Source: Clostridium sp. CAG:492
GTDB lineage: Bacteria > Bacillota > Clostridia > TANB77 > CAG-508
Length of the DNA stretch: 64,000 bases
Reading direction: 5' to 3'
NCBI GenBank assembly: GCA_000434335.1
Contig: FR878232.1
Span: 5,066 to 69,065, forward strand
Shown here: one piece after another, positions 19,406-50,300 of the stretch
Layout of the letters: each line of letters starts with the position of its first letter
Position numbering within the stretch: the stretch's first letter is position 1
Made by a program: the position numbers and the translations under genes
The notes under the pieces: model-generated
The model's input: the letters and a program-made list of their open reading frames with translations, nothing else
The model's database searches: none
Told to the model about the DNA's origin: nothing

Positions 19406-19415
19406 GAGGTAAAAT

Positions 19416-20426
19416 ATGTTTAAATTTTTAGATTATTTTAAAGATAATAGAAAAAAAGTAATAATAGTAATAGCGTGTGTATTGTTAATAATATACGCAA
19501 TAAAAACGTATTTTGACTATAATGAAAAAAATGAGTACAATGAAAGCAATAGCAGTAGTAGTAATAATACTACTGCTATTGTTAAAAATAATGATATTAC
19601 TAATACGAATGATAATAATATAAATCAAACAGAAAATATAGTAAAAATAGGATCTGAAAATGAGGCAGTAGAAAAGTTTGTAAACTATTGTAATAATTAT
19701 AATATAGAAACAGCATACAATATGCTAACAGATGAATGTAAAAAGTTATTATATACAAATAAAGAGGATTTTGAAAACAAATATGTAAAAAGTTTGTTTG
19801 ATAAAAAAAGAACATATCAAATTGAAAAAGTATTACAATCAAGTTCTACAGATAATGTATATAAACTTATTTTGTCTGAAGATCCAATAAACAAAGGAAA
19901 AGTAGATGAAAGTAATAATAAAATTGATTACATAACTATAGTTAATACAAATGGAACATATAAACTAAATATTTCTGGTTTTATAAAATCAGAAAGCATA
20001 AATTCAAGTAATCAAAATACTTATATGCAAATTAGTGTGTCAAGCAAATTAATATTTGTAGATTATGAAATTTATAACATTACTGCAAAAAATAATATAT
20101 TAGTAGATGCAGTTCTTGACAATATGGAAAACAATATAAAAACATATATTGAGGATGAAGATGGTAATAAATTTAGAATTATAAATGATGAATATACAGC
20201 TGAAACAACGAGAGTTCAAAATGGTAAGGAAGCAAGTTTTAGTTTAAAATTTGATAGGAAATATTCAAGTAATAATAAAGAAATTAAAAAAATAGTTTTT
20301 TCAAGAATTAATATAATAAACAGAAATTATTATCAAAAGATATTTGATCCAGAAAACAAAACAACAAGTTATAAAGAGCAAATGTCTACATATCCTAAAT
20401 ATTTGAGCTTGGAGGTAGAGCTATAG
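19416..20426 (+). CDS. membrane-anchored T4SS protein, possibly TcpC/Orf13 (VirB8-like) family
   Basis: N-terminal TM, 336 aa. Size, topology and position match TcpC-like proteins; no strong motif. Confidence 0.3.
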   Translation: MFKFLDYFKDNRKKVIIVIACVLLIIYAIKTYFDYNEKNEYNESNSSSSNNTTAIVKNNDITNTNDNNINQTENIVKIGSENEAVEKFVNYCNNYNIETAYNMLTDECKKLLYTNKEDFENKYVKSLFDKKRTYQIEKVLQSSSTDNVYKLILSEDPINKGKVDESNNKIDYITIVNTNGTYKLNISGFIKSESINSSNQNTYMQISVSSKLIFVDYEIYNITAKNNILVDAVLDNMENNIKTYIEDEDGNKFRIINDEYTAETTRVQNGKEASFSLKFDRKYSSNNKEIKKIVFSRINIINRNYYQKIFDPENKTTSYKEQMSTYPKYLSLEVEL

Positions 20427-20457
20427 AATAAAAATGACCAGGAAAGGAGGTAAGGCT

Positions 20458-25521: not shown

Positions 25522-25534
25522 GGAGGTGCTTTAT

Positions 25535-26872: not shown

Positions 26873-26889
26873 TATGTTATTAAAGGAAA

Positions 26890-26935
26890 AAGTTTGAAAG
26901 CAGTACAATTTATACGGTTTTTCAAACTTTATTTC
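26890..26935 (+). terminator. rho-independent terminator
   Basis: AAAGTTTGAAA...TTTCAAACTTT 11-bp stem followed by a T-rich run. Confidence 0.5.
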
Positions 26936-26960
26936 TTAAAAGAAAGGAAAGTGAATATAA

Positions 26961-28460
26961 ATGAGTGATATGAAAGAGCTTACAAGAACGATACAAAGTG
27001 ATGTATTAAAGTTAATGCAAGAGCAGGATAATGAAAACGAAAGATTTTTATATGCAATTCCATATAATGAGTTTTATTTAACACAACCATCAAATGAAAA
27101 CGAAGTAGCACTAAAGCTTAATGAAATAGTCCTAATTGTAAAGGAAATGATAGTTAATAAGTTTGGTGAAACAAAACGAAAATTTGAATTATATAATAAT
27201 GAGTTACAAAAAATTGGGACAGCAGTTGAAGGAGAAAACTTTATTGCTGATAAAGAAATTTTATGTAGTATTATTGAAATGCAGCAAAGAGCGTTAAACA
27301 ATCTAGGAGGTAATTATAGAATTGCTGGCATAGATTCAATAGATACTGAAGGGAAAATTGAGTCATATTTTGAAATGATAAACAGAAAACTAGTTGTTTT
27401 GAATGAAAGGCAAAAAGAAAAATATGATATGTTAAAACGTAATTATGAAAGAAGTATATCTGGTGTAAGTTATAATAAAAAAGTAGATAAAAACGAAAAA
27501 TTTAACAAAGGAATTAGCGAGCAGATAGAAAATGGAAACATAAATAATGGAGAAAATGCAGAAGCAATGAAAGAAATTGCCGAACAAGATTTAGGTTTTG
27601 AAATTTCAAAAATAACTCCAATTGAGGATGACTTATTTTATGATAATAATCCGCAAATAGATAGATATAGAGCATTTCTTGTAGTTGATAGAGAAATGAA
27701 ACCTCAAATTGTTGCTATGAAAAATGGAAAATTAGAAAAAGCAGACGGTTTTGATGAAGCAACCAAAAGAACAGGTGAAGCAGCTATAATGAGAAATGAT
27801 GGTAAAAATTTAGAGCAAAATCATACATATGGTGAAATAAGAAGAAATAACGATGGAGCTGATAGCTTGGTTTACTCAATAGAAATAGGAACATATGGAG
27901 AACCAAAATTATTAGAGAAGAGACCTAATGGAGGTAGTAAATTTCAGCAACAAAATGAATATTTAGTAAGAGAGGTACAAACAAGTAATACAAATTATGA
28001 AGATATCAACAGAGAAGGTGATACTAGAGAAAATATAACTCGACAAATTTTTTCTGAAAGACCAGGTTATAATGATGATAGTCATCCAGACAATATAAGT
28101 GAACAAAATAAGAAGATTGTAAGTGATATGGCCGATAATAAAGAAAGTGATTTTACTCCTGAATCATTAGCAGAAGATAAAAATATTAAAGCAAATGAAG
28201 CAATGAAAAAGATAAAAGAAGAGCTAAAAAAACAAGGAATAGACTACAATTCATCTGATGATGAGAAAATAAGGAATGATGTTATGAGTTCTATAGAAAA
28301 TAATGGAAAGATTTTTTGTGAAGAAGAAGTACAACAATATTGCAAAAATTTTAAACAATATAAAATAGAACAAGAACAGGAAAATAAAAATTCAAAAGAT
28401 GATGAAGATGAGGGAAGAAACAGATTAGAAGAAATATTAAAAAAGTTTAAGGGATACTAA
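26961..28460 (+). CDS. hypothetical acidic protein (499 aa)
   Basis: Long ORF with an RBS. No recognisable domain. Confidence 0.4.
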   Translation: MSDMKELTRTIQSDVLKLMQEQDNENERFLYAIPYNEFYLTQPSNENEVALKLNEIVLIVKEMIVNKFGETKRKFELYNNELQKIGTAVEGENFIADKEILCSIIEMQQRALNNLGGNYRIAGIDSIDTEGKIESYFEMINRKLVVLNERQKEKYDMLKRNYERSISGVSYNKKVDKNEKFNKGISEQIENGNINNGENAEAMKEIAEQDLGFEISKITPIEDDLFYDNNPQIDRYRAFLVVDREMKPQIVAMKNGKLEKADGFDEATKRTGEAAIMRNDGKNLEQNHTYGEIRRNNDGADSLVYSIEIGTYGEPKLLEKRPNGGSKFQQQNEYLVREVQTSNTNYEDINREGDTRENITRQIFSERPGYNDDSHPDNISEQNKKIVSDMADNKESDFTPESLAEDKNIKANEAMKKIKEELKKQGIDYNSSDDEKIRNDVMSSIENNGKIFCEEEVQQYCKNFKQYKIEQEQENKNSKDDEDEGRNRLEEILKKFKGY

Positions 28461-32804: not shown

Positions 32805-32892
32805 GCAGATGTGGCGGAACTGGCAGACGCACAGGACTTAAAATCCTGCGGTTGAATAAACCGTGCCGGTTCGATTCCGGCCATCTGCACCA
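32805..32892 (+). tRNA. tRNA-Leu (anticodon TAA), long variable arm, encoded CCA
   Basis: Cloverleaf: GCAGATG acceptor; anticodon loop CUUAAAA; TPsiC arm GGTTCGATTCC; ends GCACCA. Confidence 0.85.
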
Positions 32893-32893
32893 A
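32882..32893 (+). repeat. attL: 12-bp direct repeat CATCTGCACCAA at the tRNA-Leu 3' end
   Basis: Identical 12-mer at 41278-41289, downstream of the integrase. Confidence 0.6.
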
Positions 32894-33126
32894 GAATACA
32901 GATTAGAAATCAAATTTCTAACCTGTATTTTTTTGCGTGATTTCAAGAAAAAAGCTACATTTTATAGGTGCTTTGGAACTGTTCCAAAAAGTTCTAAAAA
33001 ATGCCCTATAATGTATATAAAATGTCGGGATTGCATGTCGGGAAAATTTTTAATCTTTGATAATTCTATCAAATACTCCCTTTATTTATTATTAGTCCTA
33101 TTCTGAGTATCAGAAAGGATATAGAA

Positions 33127-33501
33127 ATGGAATTTATACCATACAAAGCTCATGAATGTTTTGAACATTTATATTATCAAATACCAATGGAGTTATTCCT
33201 TAACAAAAATTATAAAGATAATTTAAATTCAGATAGCAAAATTCTTTATGGCTTTTTACTAAATAGACTAACATTATCAGCAAAAAATAATTGGGCTGAT
33301 GAAGAAGGAAATGTTTTTCTAATATTTACTAGAAAAGAAGTACAAGAATTACTGGGTTTATCTGATAAAACAGTTACAAAAGCTTTTAAGCAATTAAAGG
33401 ATTGTAAATTAACATATGAGAAAAAGCAAGGCGCAAATAAACCTAATTTGATTTATGTTGGAAAGATAGAACATGATAAAAATCTTATACAACATTCGTA
33501 A
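33127..33501 (+). CDS. RepA_N-family replication initiator (N-terminal wHTH domain), possibly truncated or frameshifted
   Basis: LYGFLLNRLTLSAKNNWADEEGNVFLIFTRKEVQELLGLSDKTVTKAFKQLKD is the RepA_N signature. Only 124 aa; the overlapping ORF 33473-33694 may be its displaced C-terminus. Confidence 0.5.
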   Translation: MEFIPYKAHECFEHLYYQIPMELFLNKNYKDNLNSDSKILYGFLLNRLTLSAKNNWADEEGNVFLIFTRKEVQELLGLSDKTVTKAFKQLKDCKLTYEKKQGANKPNLIYVGKIEHDKNLIQHS

Positions 33502-33699
33502 AAATTACGAGTCCAAAATCGTAAAATCTACGGCTCACGACACGGAAAATTTACGACCAAATTATAACAATAATAATTATAACAATAAAGTAAAAGGTAA
33601 AAATAGTTATTCAAATTATGAGCAAAGACATTATGATGATTTAAACTTCTTATATGCAAATAATAATTTTGAAAATAATGATGAAACGGAGTGATTTTA

Positions 33700-34062
33700 A
33701 TGAATTTAGAATATATAAAATATGGAGATTATAATTTACCTAATATATCAGTTCCTGAAGAAAGTAATGAAACAAAAGGAAAACATTTTGGTAAATATGG
33801 ATTATTAAGATTAACATTTTTGAAAGAGAATAGACAAGTTTTATACCAAGAATTATTACTTAATAATAAATTACACGAGCATTTAGTAAAAACAGATGAA
33901 GAAACAAATATAAAAGTAAATAACTTAATAAAAGAACTTGCAGAGCAAGAAAATGTTGACGAGAATTTAAAAGCAACTAACCAATTAGAATGGGTTCAAA
34001 AAATGAACAACATTAAAAATCGTGCAGAAGAAATAGTATTTAATGAGCTAATTTATGTATAA
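33700..34062 (+). CDS. TnpV-like transposon-encoded protein
   Basis: GKYGLLRLTFLKENRQVLYQELLLNNKLHEHL...LEWVQKMNNIKNRAEEIV resembles the Tn4451 TnpV family. ATG at 33700 follows the RBS ACGGAG. Confidence 0.5.
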   Translation: MNLEYIKYGDYNLPNISVPEESNETKGKHFGKYGLLRLTFLKENRQVLYQELLLNNKLHEHLVKTDEETNIKVNNLIKELAEQENVDENLKATNQLEWVQKMNNIKNRAEEIVFNELIYV

Positions 34063-34204
34063 ATATCTCTGACGATATTTTGAAAGCAAGCGTCGCATTT
34101 ATACTCCCGTACAAATACAGCTTGTCAGTTTTGAAACAAAAATGATTAATGGGGAAATTCTTCCCCAAACCCCTTTATTTTTTTAAGAAAGGAGTGCAAA
34201 TTTT

Positions 34205-34528
34205 ATGAGAAAAAGAAATATAAAAAAACAAATATGGATAAATTTTCAAGAAGATAATTTACTAAAAAAGAAATCAAAAGAAAGTGGATTAAGTGAATCT
34301 GAATTTATAAGAAGTTTAGTAAGAGGTTATAGAATAAAAGCACAACCTACTGAAGAAATAAAATCTTTTCAAAGAGAGTTATATGGAATAGCGAATAATA
34401 TAAATCAAATTGCAAGAATTGCAAATTCAAGATTAAGTGTTTCACACGATGATTATTCATATATTTCAAAAGAGCTTTCTGATTTTATTTTGAGATTTGA
34501 AAAAGAACTTTATTCAAGACAAAAATAA
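34205..34528 (+). CDS. MobC-family relaxosome accessory protein (RHH)
   Basis: SESEFIRSLVRG (RHH) and YGIANNINQIARIAN (MobC motif). Immediately upstream of the relaxase. Confidence 0.6.
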   Translation: MRKRNIKKQIWINFQEDNLLKKKSKESGLSESEFIRSLVRGYRIKAQPTEEIKSFQRELYGIANNINQIARIANSRLSVSHDDYSYISKELSDFILRFEKELYSRQK

Positions 34529-34542
34529 GGAGGCTTGCTGCT

Positions 34543-35841
34543 ATGGCTATTATAAAATATAAAGTTATACAAAAGAATTTAGAAGCTGTAATAAACTATG
34601 CCAAAAATGGAGATAAAATAGAAAAAGGGATACTTGTATGTGGCATAAATTGTTTGCCAGATACAGCATATTTCCAAATGATGCTCACAAAAAAGACATT
34701 TCATAAAGAAGATGGAAGGCTAGGTTATCATATAATTCAATCATTTAATGGAAAAGAGGTATCTCCTGAAAAATGTAATAGCATAGGTGTTGAATTTGCC
34801 AAAAGTCTATTTGGAGATAAATATCAGGTTTTAGTATGTACTCATATAGATAAAGAAAATGTCCATAATCATATCGTGCTAAATTCAGTTTCTTTTGTAG
34901 ATGGGCTTAAATACCACAATTCTAATGCAGAACTTGCTTTTTTAAGAGAAACAAGTGATGATTTATGTAGAAAGTATGGTTTATATGTTATTGAAAGTGA
35001 AAAAGCTGATAAAGAAAATGCTATTGCTAGAAATAGAACAAATAATTATAATCGCAATAGTGGCAAAATGGAGCTAATAAAAAACGATATTGATGAGGCA
35101 ATAAAGAATGCTAAAAAATATAAAGACTTTATTGATAACTTGGCTTATAAAGGCTATTATGTTAAAAAAAACAATAATGTAATATCTGTATCAACTCCAT
35201 ATTTTAATAGAAATATAAGACTTTCAAGAGCCTTTGGAGAAGATTATACCTTTGAAAATATTAAAAATAGAATTTATTATAGAGATTATCAATTTAAAGA
35301 AGATAAAGTATATAAAATTAGAATATATGAAGGTGTTAAAATTAATTCTGAATTATTAAAAATATCACCATTTTATAGATTATATGTGCATTTCTTATAT
35401 ATTTTAGGAAAATTACCACCTAAAATACGTTATGAAGAAAGAACACCAGAATATTACAGAGAAATAAATAAATTTAATAAGCTATGTGATGAGCTAAATA
35501 TGATTAGTGATTATAGCTTAACATCAATTACAGATATTCAAAATTTAAGGATTAAATATCTTGAAGAAATTTCACCTTTAAAAGCTCAAAGAGAAAAATA
35601 TAGAAAATTATATAATATAACCCAAAATGATGCCGATAAAACGATTCTCAAAGCAAAAATTAATCATTTAACTGAAGATATTGATAGATTGAATTCTAAA
35701 ATACAAACTTGCAGAAGAATTATTACTAAATTTGAAAAAGGAGAAAAAGAAGATTGGCTAATTCAGAAAAGATTTGAAAATAATAAGGAAATAAGTGAAA
35801 AAGAGATTTTGAAAAATAAAGATAATAGAAGAATAAGATAG
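34543..35841 (+). CDS. relaxase/mobilization nuclease (MobA/VirD2-type His-triad relaxase)
   Basis: HIDKENVHNHIVLN (HxDxxHxHxH motif III) with an N-terminal catalytic Tyr region. 432 aa. Confidence 0.65.
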   Translation: MAIIKYKVIQKNLEAVINYAKNGDKIEKGILVCGINCLPDTAYFQMMLTKKTFHKEDGRLGYHIIQSFNGKEVSPEKCNSIGVEFAKSLFGDKYQVLVCTHIDKENVHNHIVLNSVSFVDGLKYHNSNAELAFLRETSDDLCRKYGLYVIESEKADKENAIARNRTNNYNRNSGKMELIKNDIDEAIKNAKKYKDFIDNLAYKGYYVKKNNNVISVSTPYFNRNIRLSRAFGEDYTFENIKNRIYYRDYQFKEDKVYKIRIYEGVKINSELLKISPFYRLYVHFLYILGKLPPKIRYEERTPEYYREINKFNKLCDELNMISDYSLTSITDIQNLRIKYLEEISPLKAQREKYRKLYNITQNDADKTILKAKINHLTEDIDRLNSKIQTCRRIITKFEKGEKEDWLIQKRFENNKEISEKEILKNKDNRRIR

Positions 35842-35961
35842 CGATTAAATTTGCAATATTATGTAAAATATGGTATAATAAAAATTAGATACCGAATGGT
35901 ATTATAAAAAATAAATGGGCTATTTCAAGCCAAGTCCTATATGGGCGGAAAGGTTTTTATT

Positions 35962-36378
35962 ATGAAGATTAACAACAACTCTGCACTCTACACCAACTGT
36001 GTCTTCCTGGGTGGCACTTGTGCCAATTCTACCTGGAGAACCGATCTCATCAGCAAACTCAAGGACTCTGTTCCTTACTTCGACCCTCAGGTTCCTGACT
36101 GGACTCCTGAAGATGCCGAGCGTGAGGATGCATGCAAGCCCGTTGCTGGTATCAATGTTTTCGTCATCACTGGCGATGCACTCGGTACCTACTCTGGTTT
36201 CGAAATCTGTGAGGAAGCTCACCGTGCTCCTGAAAAGTTGGTTTTCGCCACTGTTGGTGAATTGCCTGAAAATCAGGTCAAGGGCATTGGAAAGATTAAG
36301 AAAGCTCTGATTGCAAAGGGATGCCGTGTTTGTGAGACTCTTGACGAGATCGCTGAAATTATCAACCAGGCATATTAA
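35962..36378 (+). CDS. high-GC (~50%) foreign gene; nucleoside 2-deoxyribosyltransferase-like (Rossmann/SLOG-like) protein, function unknown
   Basis: GC3-rich codons (CTG, GGC, ACC) in a 27% GC background. VFLGGTCA...GDALGTYSGFEICEEA resembles the NDT-like fold. ATG at 35962 follows GGAAAGG. Confidence 0.4.
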   Translation: MKINNNSALYTNCVFLGGTCANSTWRTDLISKLKDSVPYFDPQVPDWTPEDAEREDACKPVAGINVFVITGDALGTYSGFEICEEAHRAPEKLVFATVGELPENQVKGIGKIKKALIAKGCRVCETLDEIAEIINQAY

Positions 36379-36431
36379 TCCCAGTAAAAACAAGGTATTT
36401 GGTAGCTAGAACTCTTACAGCCTTATACCTC

Positions 36432-36470
36432 CACCGAATATTCAAGTATTCGGTGGTTTCTTTTTATTTT
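36432..36470 (+). terminator. bidirectional rho-independent terminator between convergent genes
   Basis: ACCGAATATTCAAGTATTCGGT hairpin followed by a T-run. Confidence 0.55.
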
Positions 36471-36784
36471 AGATTATTTTGATCAATCCAATGCAAAAAT
36501 TCCATATTTCCACCTTTAATTTCATAATACGAAATTTCAGCTATTTCATAATCATGTATTTTCTTGATTTCATTTTCTATTTCAGTAAATAAGCTTTCTT
36601 TTGTTCTAAATTCTAATTTATATTCATCGCATTCTTCTAATTCATTATTCCACCAATATTTGGAATGAACTTTAGAAAGTTGACATCCAGCTACTAATCT
36701 TTTTTCTAGTAATGTATCTACAATTTTATTTGCTATTTCTTCCTTATCACAAAATGTTGTTACAATTATATATTCATTTAGCAT
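36464..36784 (-). CDS. cutA: CutA1 divalent-cation tolerance protein family (PII-like fold)
   Basis: IIVTTF...LVAGC...SKYWW...HDYEIAEI...GGNMEFLHWIDQ matches conserved CutA positions. Confidence 0.55.
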   Translation of the reverse strand: MLNEYIIVTTFCDKEEIANKIVDTLLEKRLVAGCQLSKVHSKYWWNNELEECDEYKLEFRTKESLFTEIENEIKKIHDYEIAEISYYEIKGGNMEFLHWIDQNNLK

Positions 36785-36934
36785 TGATTTTCACTCCTTA
36801 AATTTAATATTAATGTTTTAGCATTCTTATAAGTTGTAGAATTTTCTCCATATCTACTTTTGATATCTTCAAGTCTTTTGATATAACCAACATCATGATT
36901 AAATCCTAATACAAATAAATCTTTTAATTCCATT

Positions 36935-37168
36935 TTAAACCTCTTTATTTAAAAATCTTTTTTCTGCTTCAATTACCTTAGCATTATTTTTTATTAATGG
37001 TTCTTCTATACCATCCTCATTTATGCAATTAATGTATTTAAAATCTCCACCAATTCTTGTATACTGATTTCCACCATCTATTGAACAAGCACCACACTTG
37101 CAACTTACACAATCGTGTAAATTTTTTGATTCAATTATATCATTACATTTTAAACATCTAATTTTCAT
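36935..37168 (-). CDS. small Cys-rich (zinc-ribbon-like) protein
   Basis: CLKCN...CVSCKCGAC...CIN Cys clusters. Overlaps the upstream nuclease gene stop. Confidence 0.35.
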   Translation of the reverse strand: MKIRCLKCNDIIESKNLHDCVSCKCGACSIDGGNQYTRIGGDFKYINCINEDGIEEPLIKNNAKVIEAEKRFLNKEV

Positions 37169-38195
37169 TATCTAATCCTTCTAACCTTTTCTTTATTTCT
37201 TCAGGAGATGGTAATAAATCTTTCATTTGCTCTGGTAAAGAATCATGAATCTTATATGTTGCAACTCCAATAGGTTTGTCACTATTACTCAAAGCATATT
37301 CTACAACAGTCCTATTTTTTTCTTTACAAATTATAATACCAATTGATGGATTTTCACTTTCCATTTTAACCTGTTTATCTAATACTGTTAAATAAAATTG
37401 TAATTGACCAACATATTCTGGTTTGAATTCGCCTATTTTTAATTCTATTGCAACTAAACTCTTTAAACTTCTATGATATAGAAGTAAATCAATATAAAAA
37501 TCATTTCCATCAACATTTAGATGATATTGATTACCCATAAATGCAAAATTTCCACCCATTTCTCCAAGAAAATCCTTTATATTGTCAACTAAAGCTCTTT
37601 CTAATTCTCTTTCAGAATGTTGTTCAGATAGTTCCATTATATCAAATATATACTCATCTTTTACTGCAAGTTTAGCTTGATTTACATACTTCTCAGGCAA
37701 AGTTTCATCGAAATTTGTCTGATTGATTAAATACTTTTCATAAGATTTATTTTCAATATGGTTAATTAGTACATCTTTCGACCAACCATATTTTTTTGTC
37801 ATCTTTATATAAAATTCTCTTTCCAGATTATCTTTGCATTTTTCTGTTATAACAATATTTTTAGTCCAACTAATTTCTCGCACGAGTGGTGCGAGATTTT
37901 CTATATCTTTATATGTAATATAAAAATTTCTCATTCTCCATAAATTGCTTGCAGAAAATCCTTTTACTTCTGGGAATTCTTTTTGAATTTCTTTTGCTAA
38001 AACTTCAACAATTGATTTTCCCCAGCCCTTTTCTTGCTGTTGGTTATATATTTCTTCTCCAATTCCCCAATACAAGTTAATTAGCGTTGTATTTACAGCT
38101 TTCATAGCTTCATATTGACTTTCTCTTATTTTATTTTTAATTTCAACAATAAAATTATTGTATTCTGCATTTATTAGATTGTTTTCCATTTTCAA
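37158..38195 (-). CDS. YhcG/DUF1016-family PD-(D/E)XK nuclease
   Basis: N-terminal ...TLINLYWGIGEEI...GWGKSIVEVLAKEIQKEFPEVKGFSASNLWRMRNFY is the YhcG signature. C-terminal D...ELK PD-(D/E)XK core (IDLLLYHRSLKSLVAIELKIGEF). Confidence 0.65.
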   Translation of the reverse strand: MKMENNLINAEYNNFIVEIKNKIRESQYEAMKAVNTTLINLYWGIGEEIYNQQQEKGWGKSIVEVLAKEIQKEFPEVKGFSASNLWRMRNFYITYKDIENLAPLVREISWTKNIVITEKCKDNLEREFYIKMTKKYGWSKDVLINHIENKSYEKYLINQTNFDETLPEKYVNQAKLAVKDEYIFDIMELSEQHSERELERALVDNIKDFLGEMGGNFAFMGNQYHLNVDGNDFYIDLLLYHRSLKSLVAIELKIGEFKPEYVGQLQFYLTVLDKQVKMESENPSIGIIICKEKNRTVVEYALSNSDKPIGVATYKIHDSLPEQMKDLLPSPEEIKKRLEGLDNEN

Positions 38196-38213
38196 CCTCC
38201 CAATAACATAAAA

Positions 38214-39161
38214 CTATTCAATATAATTATTTTTCTTTTGTCTGCTTTTGTTTATATTTTCTCTATTTCTACATTGTATAGTGTCATATTCAGACTTAAT
38301 ATTTTCTGCAATAAATGGTTTACCACAATGTTTGCATAGTTTTACTTCTGTTCTTCCAGAAGTTTCATTTAGAAGTAAGATAGTTTCTATTATTTCACTT
38401 AAAGACATAAAATTCCATTTGAATTTTATTTGCCCATCTTCAGCACTATATGAAATATTAGGCTTTTTTAAGCTATCTCCAGTGATACTTTCTTGATATA
38501 CTTGTCTTATATCTTCTGATACATCATCATAAAGGTAAGCACAAATTAAAAGCTTTTTATTGTATATAATTGTTGCAAAGTTAATAATTTCTGCAATAGT
38601 TTCAGCATAATTTTTTGAAAAAATTACATCATTAAGTCTATCTCCTTCAATTTGTTCAAAATCATCATTAAGACCAGTATTTCTGTGATAATCGTTTGCT
38701 TTCATTGTATTCGACCAGTCAATTTTTGAATCTTTCCAAAAATATTTCTTTTCAAATTCCAATGCACTTATAGAAGTATTATATCCTAAATTTACAGGGA
38801 TATCTCCATTATCCATAAATTCATAATTTTCTGGCAAATATCTAAAATTACCAAGTAATCCATAATTGCTTACAAATTCAAACACCAAATTTTGGAATTT
38901 TTCCATTTTACTTTGTGCTTCAATTGTTACTTCCTTATTGCCAAGTTTAAACATTTCATTACCAACTGATTCTTTTCCTATTACTAATAAATCTTTTAAT
39001 ATTTGATTTTTTACTTCAAATGGATCATAGGTACTTGGCTTTGCATTTTTATCTGGGAATATGTAATATTTATCGTCTTTTTTTTCAATGATATACTTAC
39101 TGTACTTACACCATTTTGCAGTAAATTTAATCTTTTCTTCTTTAATCATTTCACACCTCAT
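38214..39161 (-). CDS. hypothetical protein with a C-terminal zinc ribbon (CKHCG...CRNRE), operonic with the YhcG nuclease
   Basis: 315 aa. Likely start at the internal MIKEEK (39149), which has an AGGTG RBS. No recognised domain. Confidence 0.4.
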   Translation of the reverse strand: MRCEMIKEEKIKFTAKWCKYSKYIIEKKDDKYYIFPDKNAKPSTYDPFEVKNQILKDLLVIGKESVGNEMFKLGNKEVTIEAQSKMEKFQNLVFEFVSNYGLLGNFRYLPENYEFMDNGDIPVNLGYNTSISALEFEKKYFWKDSKIDWSNTMKANDYHRNTGLNDDFEQIEGDRLNDVIFSKNYAETIAEIINFATIIYNKKLLICAYLYDDVSEDIRQVYQESITGDSLKKPNISYSAEDGQIKFKWNFMSLSEIIETILLLNETSGRTEVKLCKHCGKPFIAENIKSEYDTIQCRNRENINKSRQKKNNYIE

Positions 39162-39359
39162 AAAAAATCTTATAAAATTTTATAAAACTAGTTGACTTTT
39201 ATAATAATATGTTATAGATTTGTAATAGCTAAGCTACTATACTATTTCGATAAGAAATAGTAAATATCTTACAACTATGTCTATATTATATAATTTTTAA
39301 AAAATATTGTCAATAGATGGTCACTTTACAAAAAACTTAAATTGAAGGGAGGATTGCTT

Positions 39360-39563
39360 ATGAATAAGGTACAAGTAAAAGAAAAGCCAATGCCAGTTAT
39401 TTATACTACTGCAGATATTTGCAAAATGTTTCATATTGGTAGAGTAAAATGTTTAGAGCTATTTCACAGAGCTGATTTTCCAGCACAGAAATATGGCAGA
39501 GGTTTTGGAATTGAAGCAAATGCTTTAGCAAATTATATGAGCTCTAGACACATTATTTCTTAA
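39360..39563 (+). CDS. excisionase-family HTH DNA-binding protein (Xis-like)
   Basis: YTTADICKMFHIGRVKCLELFHRADFPAQKYGRGFGIEANALANYM matches the excisionase/MerR-like HTH pattern. RBS GAAGGGAGG. Confidence 0.45.
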   Translation: MNKVQVKEKPMPVIYTTADICKMFHIGRVKCLELFHRADFPAQKYGRGFGIEANALANYMSSRHIIS

Positions 39564-39715
39564 AAAGAAAAAGAGATTTAGAAATGGCACTTCTAAACCT
39601 CTTACAAATCACATGGGAATGTCTTCCTATGTAAATTCTCTGAAATTATTATAGCACAAGTAAGTAATTACTTGCAAGACATTCCCTTTAAATTTTATTA
39701 TGAAGGGAGTAAAAA

Positions 39716-40027
39716 ATGAGCAAGAAAAAAGAATTTGTCGAAGGTATTGACTATGTTATTACTATAAGAAAAAGAAAGAAATTTATAAAAAATTCAAAGA
39801 AAAATATTTGTCCTATATGTGAAAATTGCAATCATAAAAATTTGTGTTTGAATAGAAGAAACAAAGAAACTATGGAAAGGTGTAACAAGTGCAAAAATTG
39901 TAGTGATTGTGAAAATTGCGATAAATTTCACTTTTATGATGAATATGAAGGAAGGTTGTTAAAACTTGGAACAAATGCAAATACAGGCAAAGCAATTAGA
40001 CAATCATTTTCTGGTAAGTCTGAATAA
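39716..40027 (+). CDS. Cys-rich hypothetical protein, in frame with the downstream integrase across a TAA stop
   Basis: CPICENCNHKNLC...CNKCKNCSDCENC. The C-terminal ...GKAIRQSFSGKSE resembles an integrase arm-binding segment. Confidence 0.35.
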   Translation: MSKKKEFVEGIDYVITIRKRKKFIKNSKKNICPICENCNHKNLCLNRRNKETMERCNKCKNCSDCENCDKFHFYDEYEGRLLKLGTNANTGKAIRQSFSGKSE

Positions 40028-40192
40028 ATCATTTTAGAAAAATTAAGAACACAGTTTATAAAAAATAAAGAAGAAGGAATAAAAGAAACAATTTATACAC
40101 CAAATGAAGTTTCAATAATTGAACTTGCTAATGAAATTGAAGAAAATAAATTCAGACTTTCTAAAACACATGGTTCAGGATACAATAGAAAT

Positions 40193-41167
40193 ATGCAGAC
40201 AATAAAAGCGTGTAGTGCATATAATTTTATGTTTAAGCCTATTCAGAATGTAACAAGAACAGACATAGAAAGATTTTTACAGGCAGAAAAGCACAAATCT
40301 AATTCTTCTATTTCAAAAGAGTATGCTATTATCAAAAATGCATTTGCACTTGCTTATAAAAAACATTTAATTGATAGAGATATTGCATTAGATTTTAATA
40401 TTGATCCAGTAGAAAAACCTAAAAGTGAAAAACAAGATAAAGATGTTGTTGCTTTTACAATAAGAGAAGAATATACACTAATTCAGTATATAAATACACA
40501 TTATTCAAAATACAATAATATGCTTTTGTTAGCACTTTATACGGGAATGAGAATTGGAGAAGTTCTAGCATTAACAATTAACGATTTTGATTTTGATGAA
40601 GGTTATGGAACAATTAGTGTAAATAAAACTTTAACTAAAAATAAAAGTGGAAAAATAATAATTGGAAATGTTACTAAAACCAAAAATGGAAAAAGAAATT
40701 TGCATTTAGATAAAGTTTCAAAAGAAGTTGCACTAAAAGCAATTGCGGAAATGACTCAAAATAAAAGAAACCTAATATTCCTTCGCAGAGATGGAAAGCT
40801 ATATTATGATAGTCAAATAAATAGTGCATTTAAAAGAATTTGTAAAAATGCTGGGATAAAAGTAATTATGACTAAACATAGAAAAGTGTCTAAATCAAAA
40901 GGAGTTCACTATGTAAATGAACAGACCAGTGAGGCACATACACATATGTTAAGACACACATTTGCAACTAGATGTATTGAAGCAGGAATGGATTTAGCAA
41001 CACTGCAAAAAGTTTTAGGGCATGCTAATATTCAAACAACTATAAATATTTATGGAGATATATTTGATTATCATCAGAAAAATCAAATGTATAAATATAC
41101 AGAATATATGGACAAAATGAATGAAAAATATGAAAAACTATTTGAAAATAGTACGATACAAGAATAG
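40193..41167 (+). CDS. tyrosine site-specific recombinase/integrase
   Basis: Catalytic-domain motifs [11 protein letters not shown] (box I R), HMLRHTFAT (box II) and [15 protein letters not shown] (Tyr). The reading frame is open from 40028 with no ATG before 40193. Confidence 0.75.
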
Positions 41168-43172: not shown

Positions 43173-43679
43173 TTATTCCTTATCAAGTTGTTGATCTAGT
43201 TCTATTTCTTTGCAGCCAAAATAAATGAAAAATTCCGTGATTATTACTGAAATTATGGTTCCAAAGATGGAAACGATTCGGTCAAAAATGTTGGTGATAT
43301 GTTCTACGTATTCCTTTATTTGCATATCATCTTCATTTTCAGGCCTCGTTATTTCGTATGTCATCCCCTTGCCGGGGACATCATCAGTCATAACGTCCGT
43401 GCTTCCATAGAAAACATTCACCTCATCATCAGAAACATATGTTTGGTATACAATCTGTCCCTTATAGATGATACGGATTTCTCCATCAGTATTCACAGTG
43501 CATGTCATATCTTTGTCGATGGTTTTTAAATTTACATCATTAAGCTCTAAAAGTGCGGCTATTTCCAATTTGGAATTTGGCGTTGTAGTCCATACATAGT
43601 GGACAACAAAAATACCAAAAACCAATACTGCAATAAGCAGAATTGTTTTGAAAATATTCAATTTGGTAGTTTTCCGCAT
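43173..43679 (-). CDS. hypothetical membrane protein (N- and C-terminal TMs) with locally raised GC (~37%)
   Basis: RBS AAGGAGGA precedes the ATG. Composition differs from the flanks. Confidence 0.45.
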   Translation of the reverse strand: MRKTTKLNIFKTILLIAVLVFGIFVVHYVWTTTPNSKLEIAALLELNDVNLKTIDKDMTCTVNTDGEIRIIYKGQIVYQTYVSDDEVNVFYGSTDVMTDDVPGKGMTYEITRPENEDDMQIKEYVEHITNIFDRIVSIFGTIISVIITEFFIYFGCKEIELDQQLDKE

Positions 43680-44026
43680 AGTATTCCTCCTTTATAATGT
43701 TTTTATATAAAATCCGATTACATCGGATAGAATTAAGTAATTAGGGGTCAATCTATTTAAAATACATCATTGGAACTTGGTTCAAGATGCATATAATTTT
43801 TAATCTGATTTTCAATGTGCTCACCAGTATACATACGGGTTATTTGCATAAAACTTTAATACACTTATATATCATAATGCATTTTACATAAAATGTCAAC
43901 CATTTTACTAAAATCCTTTAAACACTTATTATTACAATTTATAAGAAATGAAAAAATATAAATAGTAAAATTAAATGAATTAACAAAGATAAATCCAGAT
44001 GAAAAATAAATCATAGTATATACAAT

Positions 44027-44050
44027 AAAAATGTAATAAAAATGTAATAA
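44027..44050 (+). promoter_or_regulatory. 22-bp tandem repeat AAAATGTAATAAAAATGTAATAA upstream of adhesin gene 1
   Basis: Identical 22-mer at 47167-47189; near-identical copies at 61786-61825 and 12491-12512. Lies ~50 bp upstream of a TTGACT -35-like hexamer. Confidence 0.5.
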
Positions 44051-44168
44051 TTGCCAATTAAACGTATTTCCCTAGCAAAAACCTCCCAAAATGCTAAAAA
44101 TATAAATTTGACTTACAAAAAAAATAATTTAAAATATAGTTAAAATAAAAAGAGGGAGGATTTGAGGA

Positions 44169-46976
44169 ATGAGCAAGAAATTTACAAAAATATCTATAGT
44201 GTTTTTTATAATATTGCTATCAATATTATTTAACAAAACTTCAAATGCAGAAACTTTTCAGCCTATGGGCATAGGTACTAACGATAGAAACACAACAAAC
44301 GCATTTTATAGGACAGTAGGTTCAGACAAGCAAATGTGGCAATACACAAAAGATAATCGAAGTACTGTTACCGAAAATGTATATTGTGCTAGTGAAGGAA
44401 AAAGCTTTGTAGGACCTCATAAATATGAAGGTTATGACCTTTATTATGAAAAAGGGAAAAGTGATTATTCTGTAATTTCTGCAAATTATAATAAAATATT
44501 GTGGATATTAGATAACGCATATGTGGACAAAAATGTAGATTCAGCTACTCAATCTGCAATGATTGAAAACTTAAAAAAAGTTACAAATGGAAGCGTTGAT
44601 TCACAAATTGACTACATAAACTCACATGCATACAAAAATGAATTATTTTATGAAATTACACAATGCCTATTATGGAGTTATACTAAGAATGCTAGCAATT
44701 TAGGTGGTATCACCAATATTAAATATGGAGCTACAAATTATACACAAGCAATGGACGTTTATAATGCTTTAAAAAAGGTTGCGGATACTAAAGGTAATTA
44801 TGAATCTTTAAATGTAAATGCAAATGAAGTTAAAACATATATAAATTCATTATCTTTTGATAATACTGCCGCAAAAATTGAAGGAAATGTTGTTGGTCCA
44901 TTTACATTAAATAACTATAATGAAAAATATAATTTTCCATCTGAATGGTTTGTTACAGTAAATGGGAGAGTAAATAAGGATTATAGTGTTAGAAGAGAAG
45001 AAAATAAATTTTATATAGAATTTAATTCTAATTTACCATCTACTTGTAATGTAAATGTTGATTTAGTTATGCAATATATTATTACAACTGGTAAATTTTG
45101 GTTTCAAGATGATGAAGGTCAAGAGCTAATTACTGTAAATAAAGAGCGTGTTATAAATGATATTTCAGCCAATGTTGCACAAAGTAGTAAATACTTTTTA
45201 GATGCAGTAAAACTTGAATATGGAAGTAGTAATAGGGTTCCAGGGGCAACAATTTCGATAAAATCTGAAAATGAAAGTGTTGTATATAAAACTGGTAAAA
45301 CTGGAGAAAATTGGGGAAGTTTAAAAACAGAAGATTTTACAACTTCAAAAACTTTTATTATTACAGAAGATGAAGCTCCAGATGGTTATATTAATTCTTT
45401 AAGTGGTATTAAAATTAAACTAACAGTGCAAAAAAATGGTACATCGTTTAATTCATATATTAAAATTTATAAAGATGGCAAAGATGTTACTTCTAAATAT
45501 AATAGGTTTGTAATATTATCAACTTTAAAATCTGATGACGATTCGGTTAGAATTGGTTTATATATTAGAGATATAAAAAACGTAAATTATAATTTATGTG
45601 TTATAAAAAGAAGTGCAAAAACTCAAAAAGGTTTAGCTAATGCTAAATTTGATGTTTATGAAAGTGATATGAAAACTGTAAAAGGTAGTTTAGTAACAGC
45701 TACAAATGGTTATTCTAATTTTATTTCTTATGACGTTAATGATTTGAATTCTGGTTTAAGTAAAATTTATGTAAAAGAGGTTGAGGCTCCTGCTGGTTAT
45801 GAACTTAATAACGAAAATGAGCCTATTGAAATACAACCTTATGTTGATGAATATGGTAATATAACTATTAACGAAATTAACACAGATACACTTAAAACAT
45901 ATGTGCAAGATATTGGTGGTGTTCAAACTATTACTGTAGAAAAATTTGATTCTTTAAAAAATGGTAATTATAATATTAAAATTGTTAAAATTGATTCTAA
46001 AGGAAATACTGTTTCTTCTAATGAAACAAAATTTATGGTAAATGATACCGAACTAGCAACAACAAATGGTGTTTTAGATGTTGTTACTGGTAAAAAAATA
46101 ACAGAGGATAACCAAACAGATACATATAATATAACTGAAAGTGCAGCACCTGATGGATATGGCAAATATAGTGGTAATATTAGTTTAAATGTTATTGGAA
46201 AAGAAGATGAAAATGGATATCAATTAAATAAAGATGCTACATATTTAGAGGTTAATGGCGAAAAAGTTGAGCAAGGTAAATTTTCTAGTGATGGATTTGT
46301 TTATTGGGATATTAATGATAATACTATATGTTTAAAACTTAAAAATAGTTGTTTTGATTTAGCTCTTCGTAAATGGGTAACTGAAGCGATTGTAACCGAA
46401 AATGGTAAAACAGTTACAACTAAAACTGGACATAGTGCAGATGATGATCCAGAGTCTGTTGTTAAAGTTGATTTAAAAAAGAGCAAGTTAAATGATGTTG
46501 TTGTAAAATTCAAATATTCAATTAGAGTAACAAATGAAGGTGAAATTGCAGGTGAGGCAACAGAAATTAGAGATGATATACCTGCTGGATTAAAATTTGT
46601 TGCAGAAGATAACCCTGACTGGAAAGAAGAAAATGGCCAAATTGTTACAAATAAATTGGCTAATACAACATTACAACCTAACGAAAGTGCAGAAGTTGAA
46701 ATTATATTAACGTGGATTAATAGCGAAAAGAATATGGGCGTAATGGTTAATACTGCTGAAATAAATAAAGACCATAATGATTATGGAGCTAAGGATATTG
46801 ATTCAACACCTGGTAATAAGGTTCCAGGAGAAGACGATATAGATGATGCACCAGTAATGATTACAGTTAAAACTGGTACATATATTATAAGCGTAGTTTC
46901 ATTAATATGTGGTGTAGTGTTAATATTATCAATAGGAATTGTTTTTATAAAAAAGAAAGTTATTAGTATCTATTAA
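44169..46976 (+). CDS. surface protein with an N-terminal thioester-domain-like adhesin region, Ig-like repeats, a C-terminal DLALRK (DUF11-like) domain and a TM anchor
   Basis: Signal peptide. VYCASEG (Cys) and EITQCLLW (TQxxxW) fit the TED Cys/Gln motifs. C-terminal FDLALRKWVT...VTNEGEIAG...DIPAGLKFV, then TM plus a basic tail (no LPXTG). Confidence 0.55.
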   Translation: MSKKFTKISIVFFIILLSILFNKTSNAETFQPMGIGTNDRNTTNAFYRTVGSDKQMWQYTKDNRSTVTENVYCASEGKSFVGPHKYEGYDLYYEKGKSDYSVISANYNKILWILDNAYVDKNVDSATQSAMIENLKKVTNGSVDSQIDYINSHAYKNELFYEITQCLLWSYTKNASNLGGITNIKYGATNYTQAMDVYNALKKVADTKGNYESLNVNANEVKTYINSLSFDNTAAKIEGNVVGPFTLNNYNEKYNFPSEWFVTVNGRVNKDYSVRREENKFYIEFNSNLPSTCNVNVDLVMQYIITTGKFWFQDDEGQELITVNKERVINDISANVAQSSKYFLDAVKLEYGSSNRVPGATISIKSENESVVYKTGKTGENWGSLKTEDFTTSKTFIITEDEAPDGYINSLSGIKIKLTVQKNGTSFNSYIKIYKDGKDVTSKYNRFVILSTLKSDDDSVRIGLYIRDIKNVNYNLCVIKRSAKTQKGLANAKFDVYESDMKTVKGSLVTATNGYSNFISYDVNDLNSGLSKIYVKEVEAPAGYELNNENEPIEIQPYVDEYGNITINEINTDTLKTYVQDIGGVQTITVEKFDSLKNGNYNIKIVKIDSKGNTVSSNETKFMVNDTELATTNGVLDVVTGKKITEDNQTDTYNITESAAPDGYGKYSGNISLNVIGKEDENGYQLNKDATYLEVNGEKVEQGKFSSDGFVYWDINDNTICLKLKNSCFDLALRKWVTEAIVTENGKTVTTKTGHSADDDPESVVKVDLKKSKLNDVVVKFKYSIRVTNEGEIAGEATEIRDDIPAGLKFVAEDNPDWKEENGQIVTNKLANTTLQPNESAEVEIILTWINSEKNMGVMVNTAEINKDHNDYGAKDIDSTPGNKVPGEDDIDDAPVMITVKTGTYIISVVSLICGVVLILSIGIVFIKKKVISIY

Positions 46977-46980
46977 TATT

Positions 46981-47029
46981 AAAGCTTGATGTATTAAATA
47001 ATGTGTTTAATACATCAAGCTTTTTTTGT
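46981..47029 (+). terminator. strong rho-independent terminator (17-bp stem)
   Basis: AAAGCTTGATGTATTAAA...TTTAATACATCAAGCTTT followed by T7. Confidence 0.7.
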
Positions 47030-47166: not shown

Positions 47167-47190
47167 GAAAATGTAATAAAAATGTAATAA
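47167..47190 (+). promoter_or_regulatory. 22-bp tandem repeat AAAATGTAATAAAAATGTAATAA upstream of giant adhesin gene 2
   Basis: Two 11-bp direct repeats one helical turn apart. Followed by TTGACT-N16-TAAAAT promoter-like hexamers at ~47236-47263. Confidence 0.5.
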
Positions 47191-47311
47191 ATACATAAAC
47201 AAATAAAATCCGTAGAATAAGTGTAGTTTTTTTAATAAATTTGTAATTTGACTTATATTTATAAATCATTAAAATGATGTTAAGATAAAAAACTTTTGAA
47301 GGGAGATTATC

Positions 47312-50300
47312 ATGAACGTTAAGAAAAGATGGTTTATTATTCCAATAGTTATTGTGTTTGCCATAACAATATTTTTATTGGCACATAATAATAATAAATT
47401 TAGCAGTTTTATGAGCTCTTTAGTTAAACAAGATGAAAATAAAAGTTGGACTAGAGATGAGGATAAAACTTATGTTAAAAATGATACAATTAATAAATAT
47501 GGAGAAAGCGTACAAAAAATTAATTTGTATACCATAAATGGTGGAATTGATTCTAGCGTTTTTGGATGGTGTATGAATAAAGGTGCAGCTTTATATGGAT
47601 ATGGAAATACTGGAGGATGGGGCTATGTTGATACGATAGATAAAAACTGGTCATCAGATAAAGGTAGTGTTAACTGGTTAATGGATAACATTATAAGATA
47701 TGGTAAAAGTGTTGAGAATACCGAAAAGGATTTTTATAAAAATAAATTGAATAGTTATGGAATTTCAGTAAATGGATTAGATGATGATCAAATATTTACG
47801 TTAGAGCAATATGCTTTATGGAAGTATACCAATAATCATTCTGTAAATAATGATAGATTAGATGGAAAGCTTGTAAGTAAAGCTAATGCTAATAGTAAAT
47901 ATTCATTAAATAAAACTAAGTTTGATATTGATAATTCTTCTGTAAAAATTAATTATAGTAATAATGTTGCAGTAGTTGGTCCATTTAATGTAAAAAATAA
48001 TGGATTTATGCATATTACAGCTAAAGCTAATAATGTTAATTTAGAAATGTTTAGTGATGCAAATTGTCAAAATAAAATATCTGAATATACTAATTATGCT
48101 GGAAATATTTATGTAAAATTAAACAATCCAAATAATAATACAAATATTGTTTTAAGTGGATATGAATATATAACAAAAGCTAGATATTATACTACAATTG
48201 ATAATACTCCAAATAATGAATCAAATCAACCATTTTTAATGATTGATAGAACTAAATCAGATGGAAGTAAATCTTTTAATTATGTAGTTTCTGGTAGTTA
48301 CCACATTAATGTTAAGAAAAAATCTACAACTAATGCTAACCAAAAAGTTGGTGCTAAATTTAAATTAACTCAAAAACTTTATGGTGCTAATACAGCTAAA
48401 GAATCAACTGTAGAAATAAAAAATACAGAAGAGCAAAAAACTGTAACTTTTAATGGTAAAGATGTTATTGATATTGATAAAGATGGCATAGGAGTTGGAA
48501 AACCAGATACATATACTATTTCGGAAGTTGAAGTGGAAGATGGATATCAAAAATTAGATTTATCTGGTGTAACTTTATATGTTTACAAAAAAATTGATGG
48601 TACTAAGTTACAAGTTGATTATGTAAGAGCAGTTATTAATGGTAAAAACGTAGATATTTATGCTGGAAATAGTGCAGAGCTTACTGTTAAAAATACAAAT
48701 GATTTAAAAATTGAAGTTAGCTCTACAGCATTTGCAATTGAAGTAAAAAATGCTCCTATTTTGGGAAGCTATAATATGAAAATTGCTAAAAGAGATGCTA
48801 ATACAAATTGGAGTGAATCTACAAATAATTCAACTTTAAATTTGGCAGATGCGAAGTTTAAGGTCAGACAATACATAAATATTGATGAACAAACATATAA
48901 TAATGCATTTAGGCAAGGTCAATCTTCAGATGTAGAATCATTTTTAAGTACAATGTCTGCTGTGGGAAATAAAAAAGAAGATAAATATCCTATAAGTCAA
49001 GAAAATAATTGGGTGTCTATATATAATAGTGATATAGAAATTAATAAAAATAGTGCTAATAAAATAGATATTTATGCTATAAATGAGGAGTCTGCTCCTT
49101 CTGGTTATAATAAAAATGCTAATGTTATGTATTTAAAAGTTACCAAAAAGGTAAATAGTAATGGTGATAAATATTGTATTGATAGTGTTAAATTTATTAA
49201 TTCGGCAAATGGTCAAGTAATTGATGAAAGAACTCCTAATGTTGTTACAAAAAATGAAAATGGAGGATTTACATATTACGTAAATAAAAGTGGCAATTAT
49301 AAAGTAGCATTTGATTCTTCTTCAATTTTTGTTACTTATGCGAATAATCAAATTGAAGGAAATTATAATTTACAAATATTAAAAAGATCTAGTGCTAATG
49401 ATTGGGAAAAGGATATAAATGATAAATCTAATACTTTAGCAGCAGATTTTAGTGTAAGACAATATTTAAACCAAGATAATACAGATTTTAATAATAAATT
49501 AAAACAATCTAATAATAATATTGAAACAGCTTTAAATGGTTTAACAAAGAGCGAAAAAAATGTTAAAACTCAAAAAGATGCTTGGACTACAATTTATGAT
49601 AATGTAAAAATAACTAAAAATGATGTAAATTTAATTGATATATATGCTTTAACAGAAACTAATGCTCCTGATGGTTATAATAAAAATAATAATACTATGT
49701 ATTTAAAAGTTTATAAAACTGTTAAAAGTGAAAGCAATGGTACAAATAAGTATTATATAGATAAAGTAAAATTTATGTCTGCAAATGGAAATGAACTTGA
49801 CGAAAATGTAACTGATATACAAAAAACAAATAATGGAAATTATGTTTATTATAAAAATAAATCTTTAAAATATATGTTTGCTTATAATTCAACTTCAATT
49901 ATGGTATTTTTTACAAACCAACCAATTGATGGTAGTTATAAAATGAACATTGTAAAAAGAGATATAAATGATAATTCAAATTCAACAACAAATTTAGGCA
50001 GTGCAGAGTTTGCGGTTAACCAATATTTAAATGGTGTTGAAGATAATGATAAATCTGATGATAAAGCCGATGCAATTGGTTATACAAGTAATAGTAAAAA
50101 TTCTGTTAAATTAGAAAAAGGTGTTACTCAAGATATTTACTATTCAAATTCTAATGTTGTAAAAATAACAGATATTACTAAAGTTGATGCATATACTTTT
50201 GAAGAAAAATCGGCTCCTGCTGGTTATGAAAAATCAAACTTAAAAGTTTTATTACAGGTTTATAAAACTAAAAAAACTAATTCTTCTGGAAATTTTGAGT

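Follow-up and report, generated by a model that had tools for sequence, protein, structure and literature searches.

What is the repeated TGTAAT motif that recurs ahead of giant adhesin genes in this genome, and what kind of control does it suggest? The window, by which is meant the whole 64,000-nucleotide stretch of DNA analysed here, was originally predicted to carry a conserved 22-bp tandem repeat marking the promoters of three giant adhesin genes. That observation is better supported than its reader could know, and it is broader than stated. A direct reading of the window finds the same string, AAAATGTAATAAAAATGTAATAA, at 44028-44050 and 47168-47190. The predicted identity stands, but the string is 23 nt long rather than 22, and the 24-nt ranges given for it open on a base that is not shared (A at 44027, G at 47167), the remaining 23 nt being identical. 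Both copies lie on the + strand and consist of two perfect units, TGTAATA-AAAA-TGTAATA, which begin at 44032 and 44043 ahead of the gene for a 935-aa adhesin and at 47172 and 47183 ahead of the gene for a 3400-aa SpaA-repeat adhesin. A third + strand array, at 61786-61825 ahead of an ORF starting at 61949, had been described as four 11-bp-phased copies. Its four units are present (TTGTAAT, ATGTAAT, ATGAAAA and ATGTAAT, with TG at 61788, 61799, 61810 and 61819), but the spacing is 11, 11 and 9 bp, so that the fourth unit, 9 bp after the third, is 2 bp off the 11-bp phase. Absent from the original list, whose three adhesin promoters hold, was a fourth + strand array at 12493-12531 (AAAATGTAATAAAAATGTAACCAAAATGAAAAAAATGTGG), which stands ahead of a T4SS operon. 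It comprises TGTAAT (12495), TGTAAC (12506) and the degenerate TGAAAA (12517) and TGTGGA (12526), spaced 11, 11 and 9 bp as in the 61.8-kb array. At every site the strong units are 11 bp apart, the only exception to this period being the weak fourth unit at 12 kb and 61 kb, and all four sites match TGTWAH half-sites (TGTAAT/TGTAAT at three, TGTAAT/TGTAAC at one). An inverted copy of the half-site, TTATTATTACAATTT, is also found at 43926-43940, some 90-100 bp upstream of the 44-kb array, where it faces a divergently transcribed 168-aa ORF (43173-43679).

Each array is followed by a promoter at a nearly constant distance. The three adhesin arrays end 58, 58 and 61 nt before TTGACT and 119-124 nt before the start codons, in keeping with the distances first proposed. 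The promoters of the 935-aa and 3400-aa adhesin genes (TTGACT-16-TAAAAT at 44108-44135 and 47248-47275, + strand) were both recovered by an independent promoter scan and are followed by the genes themselves at 44169-46976 and 47312-57514, and the ORF starting at 61949 is preceded by TTGACT-16-TAAAAA at 61886-61913 (+). The 12-kb array is 86 nt ahead of the TTGACA promoter and first gene of a long operon; this promoter, TTGACA-16-TAAAAA at 12581-12608 (+), is sigma-A-type by consensus match. A strong intrinsic terminator at 46981-47023 (+) lies 3' of the 935-aa adhesin gene, and the first two adhesin transcription units are therefore separate. An Rfam search of the leaders returned a tRNA-Leu and no other structured RNA.

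The genes behind the arrays encode surface and secretion functions. Downstream of the 12-kb array, the T4SS operon (12634-28460, +) encodes a PrgI/VirB3-like protein, a TraC-like protein, VirB4 (14335-16302), a membrane protein of 1006 aa that weakly matches the pLS20_p028 family, a 1695-aa peptidoglycan (cell-wall) hydrolase (20434-25521) and other ORFs. Immediately upstream of the operon are three VirB2/TrbC-like pilin genes, and a VirD4 coupling protein is encoded at 4224-5810; pilin genes and operon together occupy 10960-28460. The 935-aa adhesin contains thioester, SpaA and DUF11/CLIPPER domains. The 3400-aa ORF is followed by a 1307-aa DUF11/SpaA ORF (57714-61637) that has neither the motif nor a promoter of its own upstream, which makes three adhesin promoters a fair wording. 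The 200-nt gap between the two, 57514-57714, reads like coding sequence without a promoter or ribosome-binding site. The 1307-aa ORF is probably co-transcribed with the 3400-aa gene or its continuation, and the gap may reflect a frameshift, a sequencing error or a single gene of about 4700 aa; for neither ORF product is there an exact protein on record. The ORF beginning at 61949 leaves the window uncompleted. The motif does mark the three adhesin promoters, as claimed, but it is not specific to adhesins, being found at the prgI/VirB4 T4SS operon too.

The T4SS cluster is chromosomal. It sits among rpsU, yqeY, genes for M16 peptidases, lgt and spo0E, with recR, sleB, ypeB and a SASP gene on the left flank, and the extension analysed to the left of the window shows sporulation and housekeeping genes of the chromosome and nothing else. 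Related genomes have the same set of housekeeping genes around the cluster, in an order that varies from clade to clade. Within the conserved T4SS cluster itself no relaxase could be recognised, and near-identity searches of the 40-48 kb and 10-30 kb segments against plasmids gave no matches. Between the T4SS region and the adhesin genes, an integrated mobilisable element (32805-41167) adjoins tRNA-Leu(taa) and encodes RepA_N, TnpV, a NikA-like protein, a MobA/VirD2 relaxase, a DUF1016/YhcG nuclease, an Xis-like 73-aa ORF and a tyrosine integrase. This element is unrelated to the motif. Iterons and oriT repeats were considered and set aside: no tandem site occurs near RepA_N (33127) or the relaxase (34543), and four sites at fixed distances from structural-gene promoters are not what iterons or oriT accessory repeats would be.

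The tandem arrangement is more frequent than chance would give. The strict tandem site, TGTAAT-N5-TGTAA (strict form TGTAA-N6-TGTAA), occurs 4 times in the 64-kb window as compared to 0.64 expected from shuffles, and all four matches lie upstream of promoters on the + strand, in intergenic DNA (9% of the window). When up to 3 mismatches are allowed, the 19-mer has 6 matches as compared to 1.05 expected, a number reached in 0 of 100 shuffles. A lone 10-mer copy is not enriched (59 in the window, 46 expected), which places the signal in the tandem arrangement. The repeated motif is thus a real, conserved and non-random site, and the original view of it as a discrete element uncommon in AT-rich intergenic DNA is upheld both here and in the larger sample described below.

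VirB4 has thousands of relatives, with a relative present in at least 491 species-representative genomes, which are all uncultured 'Clostridia bacterium' or 'Clostridium sp.' MAGs and include Clostridium sp. CAG:575. In these genomes the T4SS and its three pilin genes are chromosomal and keep their synteny. A set of 80 loci from 80 species was centred on VirB4 (75-89% identical; about 20 kb each, 1.43 Mb in total). The gene order pilins, prgI, traC, virB4 is kept in all 80. Strict tandem sites form 95 clusters in these 1.43 Mb, as compared to 13.2 ± 5.3 in shuffles, and 91 of the 95 lie just upstream of prgI (70 clusters, 20-160 nt upstream) or of the first pilin gene (21 clusters). The remainder include one cluster inside coding sequence and one ahead of a gene for a 475-aa protein. 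The array at orthologous promoters is conserved across at least 80 species, in either orientation. In the window's own clade (clade A, VirB4 85-89% identical) the TGTAA units are read along transcription, and the array ahead of the T4SS operon keeps its position in L012-L015 and L074. The units of the larger, more distant clade (clade B) are inverted, (T)ATTACA(A), and the profile of 149 of them, TATTACAA, is the reverse complement of TTGTAATA. Half-site positions in this profile are conserved at 0.8-1.0 (T 0.81, A 0.85, then TTACA, then A 0.72), as compared to only 0.5-0.65 A at three spacer positions.

The distance from array to promoter is also kept in both clades. In 7 clade A genomes, 11 promoters have units whose starts precede the -35 by 65 and 76 (±1) nt, additional units being placed at 87 and 98 nt, so that the array would lie at about -95 to -135 from the likely transcription start as placed from the promoter consensus. 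In clade B the last unit is 62-64 nt (37 loci), 73-75 nt (19 loci) or 84-85 nt (2 loci) from TATAAT, in classes that are 11 bp apart. The -35 of this clade is TTACAA or TTACAT in 34 of 58 loci, with a perfect TATAAT -10. The TTACAA form found at prgI in the distant clade (L016-L091) has the sequence of the half-site. In the same loci the array, upstream of prgI, follows the stop codon of the last pilin gene and precedes a hairpin resembling a terminator, a position in which it would be transcribed in the pilin 3' end. At the 475-aa protein gene mentioned above (L017, 13578-13616), a four-unit array of TGTAAC, TGTAAC, TGTAAT and TGTAAT abuts the promoter and is far nearer to the -10 than at other sites; the protein is unannotated and lysine/glutamate-rich, and its gene lies downstream of the T4SS cluster.

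A further conserved element, which had gone unnoticed in the original prediction, lies between array and -35 in the window's clade. This second box, C(C/G)(C/G)TA(A/G) and typically ATCCGTAG, is found 38-40 nt upstream of the -35 at 9 of 13 promoters in a set drawn from the window, L012-L015, L074, L212 and L213, and the other promoters carry near-variants such as GCGTAA at the same position. In the window, all on the + strand, it reads GCGTAA (a variant, 12543-12548), CCCTAG (44070-44075) and CCGTAG (47210-47215), each 38 nt upstream of the -35, and CCGTAA (61847-61852), 39 nt upstream. Of 63 loci in the distant clade only 9 have the box, which there precedes the array by 37-39 nt, or occasionally by 25-26 nt. 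The box may be the mark of a second factor.

Homologues of the 935-aa adhesin, picked without regard to the motif, extend the footprint to adhesin genes. L212 and L213, whose homologues are 46-51% identical, have adhesin gene clusters resembling that of the window, in which three genes have a tandem site 119-126 nt upstream, an inverted array precedes a further 1216-aa ORF and degenerate single units occur at other genes. The tandem site is missing at four homologues that are more distant and lie in different genomic contexts (L214-L217).

Metagenomic matches to the 19-mer were also collected; they are examples among those listed, from many environments and with chance matches mixed in, and they give no frequencies. 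Among the matches listed, low-GC contigs have the 19-mer ahead of envelope and surface genes, namely genes for DUF11/SdrD adhesins, Big_2, dockerin, camelysin-like, Wzz, Veg and prepilin-type proteins. Individual examples among these matches are veg (L192), wzz (L131), a camelysin/TasA-like gene (L136) and prepilin-type genes (L144, L150 and L173). Also among the matches listed, the 19-mer lies 135-162 nt upstream of nrdD, the anaerobic ribonucleotide reductase gene, in three sequence contexts (L098/L146/L178/L186, L114 and L190). These examples hint that related low-GC anaerobes have a larger regulon. In two contigs from other organisms (GC 0.44-0.47), an OmpR-family gene is preceded by the 19-mer at 160-220 nt, as single cases in ambiguous context. 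A 1037-bp metagenome contig (L157, GC 0.23) contains about 600 bp full of TGTAAT/ATTACA units in both orientations, an arrangement that suggests an unrelated repetitive element rather than a promoter. For TANB77, an uncultured order from the gut, a conserved pilus cluster of the Tad/Cpa type has been described, in which several pilin-like genes have promoters of their own and which is linked to immunotherapy response (PMC11680825). That pilus is of the Tad/Cpa type, whereas the cluster in the window is VirB-type. Some motif-bearing metagenomic genes among the matches listed, such as that for a 181-aa protein in L191, resemble the TANB77 pilin-like genes (PMC11680825).

The layout of the arrays is that of a familiar class of operator. 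Binding head-to-tail to direct repeats with an 11-nt period is the norm in the OmpR family (PMC6222199). The arrays described here have the head-to-tail repeats, the 10-11-bp period and the constant half-site with variable spacer of OmpR/PhoB-type operators and, in both clades, the fixed helical phase to the promoter; the likeness extends to an AT-rich spacer of 4-5 nt, an 11-nt repeat apparently suited to multimerisation on one face of the helix, and phase dependence. The original suggestion of a tandem-binding regulator is supported by the 11-bp direct repeats and the phase-lock to the promoter, whereas the class I activator named with it is something that we can only infer. The half-sites themselves closely resemble known ones. 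For WalR of B. subtilis and S. aureus the consensus is TGTWAH-N5-TGTWAH, and for S. mutans VicR footprinting and mutagenesis have refined it to TGTWAHA-N4-TGTWAHA (PMC9210968, PMC4168254). The window's TGTAATA-AAAA-TGTAATA is an exact fit to both forms, a match that the original prediction did not recognise. VicR sites occur on either strand, and the genes under direct VicR control include surface-protein genes such as wapA and gbpB (PMC4168254). Like the WalR/YycF/VicR box, the element studied here consists of direct-repeat hexamer or heptamer half-sites with an 11-bp period, on either strand and upstream of envelope or surface genes. Unlike it, the element serves a T4SS operon, VirB2-like pilins and giant adhesins as compared to the canonical peptidoglycan hydrolases, and its arrays run to four units, lie 65-98 nt upstream of the -35 and are accompanied by a second conserved box.

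Other OmpR-family operators share the layout and differ in detail. The E. coli Pho box is CTGTCATA(A/T)A(T/A)CTGTCA (PMC4168254), and the C. difficile RR_1586 site is a doubled DRTTAAGNWWW (PMC6222199). Pho boxes take the place of the -35, whereas the window's clade keeps a normal -35 and has its array at a much greater distance upstream; in the distant clade the -35 itself, TTACAA, resembles a half-site. C. difficile CmrR (an ACAAT-N8-ATTGT inverted repeat) and RR_1586 (DRTTAAG repeats) were rejected as models because their half-sites differ. Judged by its sequence, the element would be best described as an OmpR/PhoB-type operator with a WalR-like consensus rather than as a proven WalR box. 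This kind of element, the response-regulator direct-repeat operator, is already known, and the type of mechanism is not new. The reading that we prefer, and regard as probable though by no means secure, is that the head-to-tail TGTAAT(A) half-sites form an operator array most likely bound by an OmpR/PhoB-family response regulator with a WalR/VicR-like site, and that this array ties together the transcription of T4SS, pilin and adhesin genes.

Several other explanations have to be weighed against this one. The motif could have spread without any common regulator, through the copying of entire promoters or on a cassette that is invertible or mobile, and the identical spacing at the 44-kb and 47-kb promoters, the short inverted sequences beside some arrays and the difference in orientation between clades are all consistent with such a history. 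When the four upstream regions in the window were compared ungapped and anchored on the -35, though, identity outside the motif and core promoter was 0.30-0.40, against 0.32 ± 0.05 for random intergenic pairs, with only discrete islands in common. Wholesale promoter duplication is rejected on this comparison, and the original prediction of a discrete conserved site is confirmed. An inverton is rejected likewise, since the inverted arms on either side measure only 7-9 nt and, at the level of assemblies, 11 of 11 independent contigs from different samples (8 at prgI, 3 at adhesin genes) have the same orientation with 0-1 mismatches. Together with the retention of the motif at orthologous promoters in 80 species, these observations make duplication or a cassette scarcely credible. 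An explanation that dispenses with a dedicated protein altogether is curvature by phased A-tracts, AAAAA every 11 bp, with UP-element-like stimulation. Clostridial promoters are known to be stimulated by phased A-tracts upstream of them, and every spacer in the window's clade is A5. In clade B, however, the spacer is variable while the TATTACAA profile is conserved, so that the register is kept and the A-tracts are not; on the strength of those 149 units a curved-DNA element was rejected, and we consider this account very improbable. A signal acting at the RNA level is disfavoured by the change of orientation between clades and by the location of the array upstream of the promoter.

More weight attaches to the idea that the binder is a tandem-repeat protein from outside the OmpR family, such as a ribbon-helix-helix or uncharacterised protein inherited with a once-mobile T4SS. 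Conjugative elements usually bring their own repressors, the cluster is of conjugative-plasmid type (VirD4, VirB4 and the weak pLS20_p028-like match), several conserved small ORFs have no family match, those at 2931-4249 being a possible source, and the second box suggests more than one factor. Set against this, the 11-bp period with a 6-7-bp half-site is an OmpR-family signature, whereas Omega, a ribbon-helix-helix repressor from pSM19035, binds 7-bp heptads that are contiguous, and the 19-mer is also found, among the matches listed, ahead of nrdD, veg and wzz, which are unrelated to T4SS and point to a host regulator. The plasmid T4SS clusters of C. beijerinckii and C. botulinum, whose VirB4 is about 40% identical, also lack the array and differ in having an HTH regulator gene nearby. 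A binder from outside the OmpR family is, on this evidence, unlikely. The absence of the motif from these related clostridial plasmid clusters makes it a feature of this lineage's chromosomal cluster and not of the T4SS type.

If the array is bound by an OmpR/PhoB-type regulator, as we prefer, its gene would lie elsewhere in the genome. Consistent with the original prediction, Pfam and NCBIfam scans of all sizeable ORFs found no regulator gene in the window, and there is none among the sporulation and housekeeping genes of the left flank. A tblastn search with a WalR-like probe found no OmpR-family gene in the window or in the 80 loci (1.4 Mb), and the same probe does detect OmpR-family genes on other contigs. 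Within the preferred explanation, it is possible, though we would not lean on it, that the regulator is the orthologue of the essential WalR (YycF/VicR) and that the T4SS, pilin and adhesin genes belong to the cell-envelope WalRK regulon. The exact fit to both consensus forms argues for this, as do the large peptidoglycan hydrolase in the target operon, the direct VicR control of surface-protein genes (PMC4168254), the statement that all Firmicutes possess WalRK (PMC9210968), and, among the metagenomic matches listed, the 19-mer ahead of genes for Wzz, camelysin-like, Big_2, dockerin and DUF11 proteins. On the other hand, a small sample of classic targets in the lineage loci (PcsB-like CC_PcsB+M23, S11 carboxypeptidase, SH3/CAP and SleB-like genes) contained no WalR-consensus match, and nearly all of the 95 sites in 80 species are at T4SS or pilin promoters, as in a dedicated regulon. 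TGT-containing half-sites with 11-bp spacing also occur for B. subtilis PhoP and E. coli ArcA. That such half-sites are common to several OmpR-family regulators, PhoB included (PMC4168254), weakens the case for WalR in particular. A dedicated regulator distinct from WalR may instead have taken over a once-mobile conjugative T4SS, co-ordinating it with VirB2-like pilins and giant thioester-type adhesins through the TGTAAT array and the ATCCGTAG box as one cell-contact programme; we offer this tentatively, and would not call it likely.

Under the OmpR/PhoB-type explanation, a phosphorylated, oligomerising winged-helix response regulator would bind two to four TGTAAT units cooperatively on one face of the helix. 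From its position upstream of sigma-A-type promoters it would set transcription of the T4SS operon, pilin and adhesin genes together. The secretion or mating machine and the adhesins would thereby be made at the same time, along with the VirB2-like pilins in related species, and the regulator, encoded elsewhere, would be either the WalR orthologue or a separate protein. Such co-regulation would make sense in that a thioester-domain adhesin is required for efficient pLS20 conjugation (PMC8092201). The window resembles pLS20-type systems in that a thioester-domain adhesin accompanies a Gram-positive T4SS whose components include VirB4, VirD4 and a cell-wall hydrolase. It differs from them in that pLS20-type systems are plasmid-borne and controlled by element-encoded repressors, whereas this one is chromosomal, occurs in at least 491 species and has no regulator gene found nearby.

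Both binding by an OmpR/PhoB-type protein and activation are what we infer from the pattern of sites. Activation is mildly favoured over repression by the promoters of the distant clade, which pair a poor -35 (TTACAA) with a perfect -10. Repression or looping may be alternative modes, and the promoters of the window's clade look strong unaided. Two features speak against an OmpR-type activator: the array is further upstream than many OmpR-family activator sites, and a change of orientation between clades is unusual for directional contact with RNA polymerase. The lack of the site at the more distant adhesin homologues (L214-L217) also counts against the preferred explanation. The second box between array and -35 suggests that a second factor, or another protein touching both elements, may be involved.

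The site defines a putative regulon of secretion, pilin and adhesin genes in uncultured, reduced-genome gut Clostridia, and it supplies a concrete control element for a chromosomal T4SS/pilin/adhesin system conserved in at least 491 species-level genomes. Here a conjugation-type machine has apparently been put under host-type two-component control. Should a dedicated regulator prove to be responsible, the T4SS that it took over would now be fixed in the chromosomes of hundreds of uncultured gut Clostridia species, and if the lineage is TANB77 or a relative, the regulon could reach surface structures linked to host immune effects. The motif offers a means of computing the regulon, finding the regulator and tracking the expression of cell-contact machinery in metatranscriptomes, and is thus a useful handle on a widespread, little-studied gut lineage.
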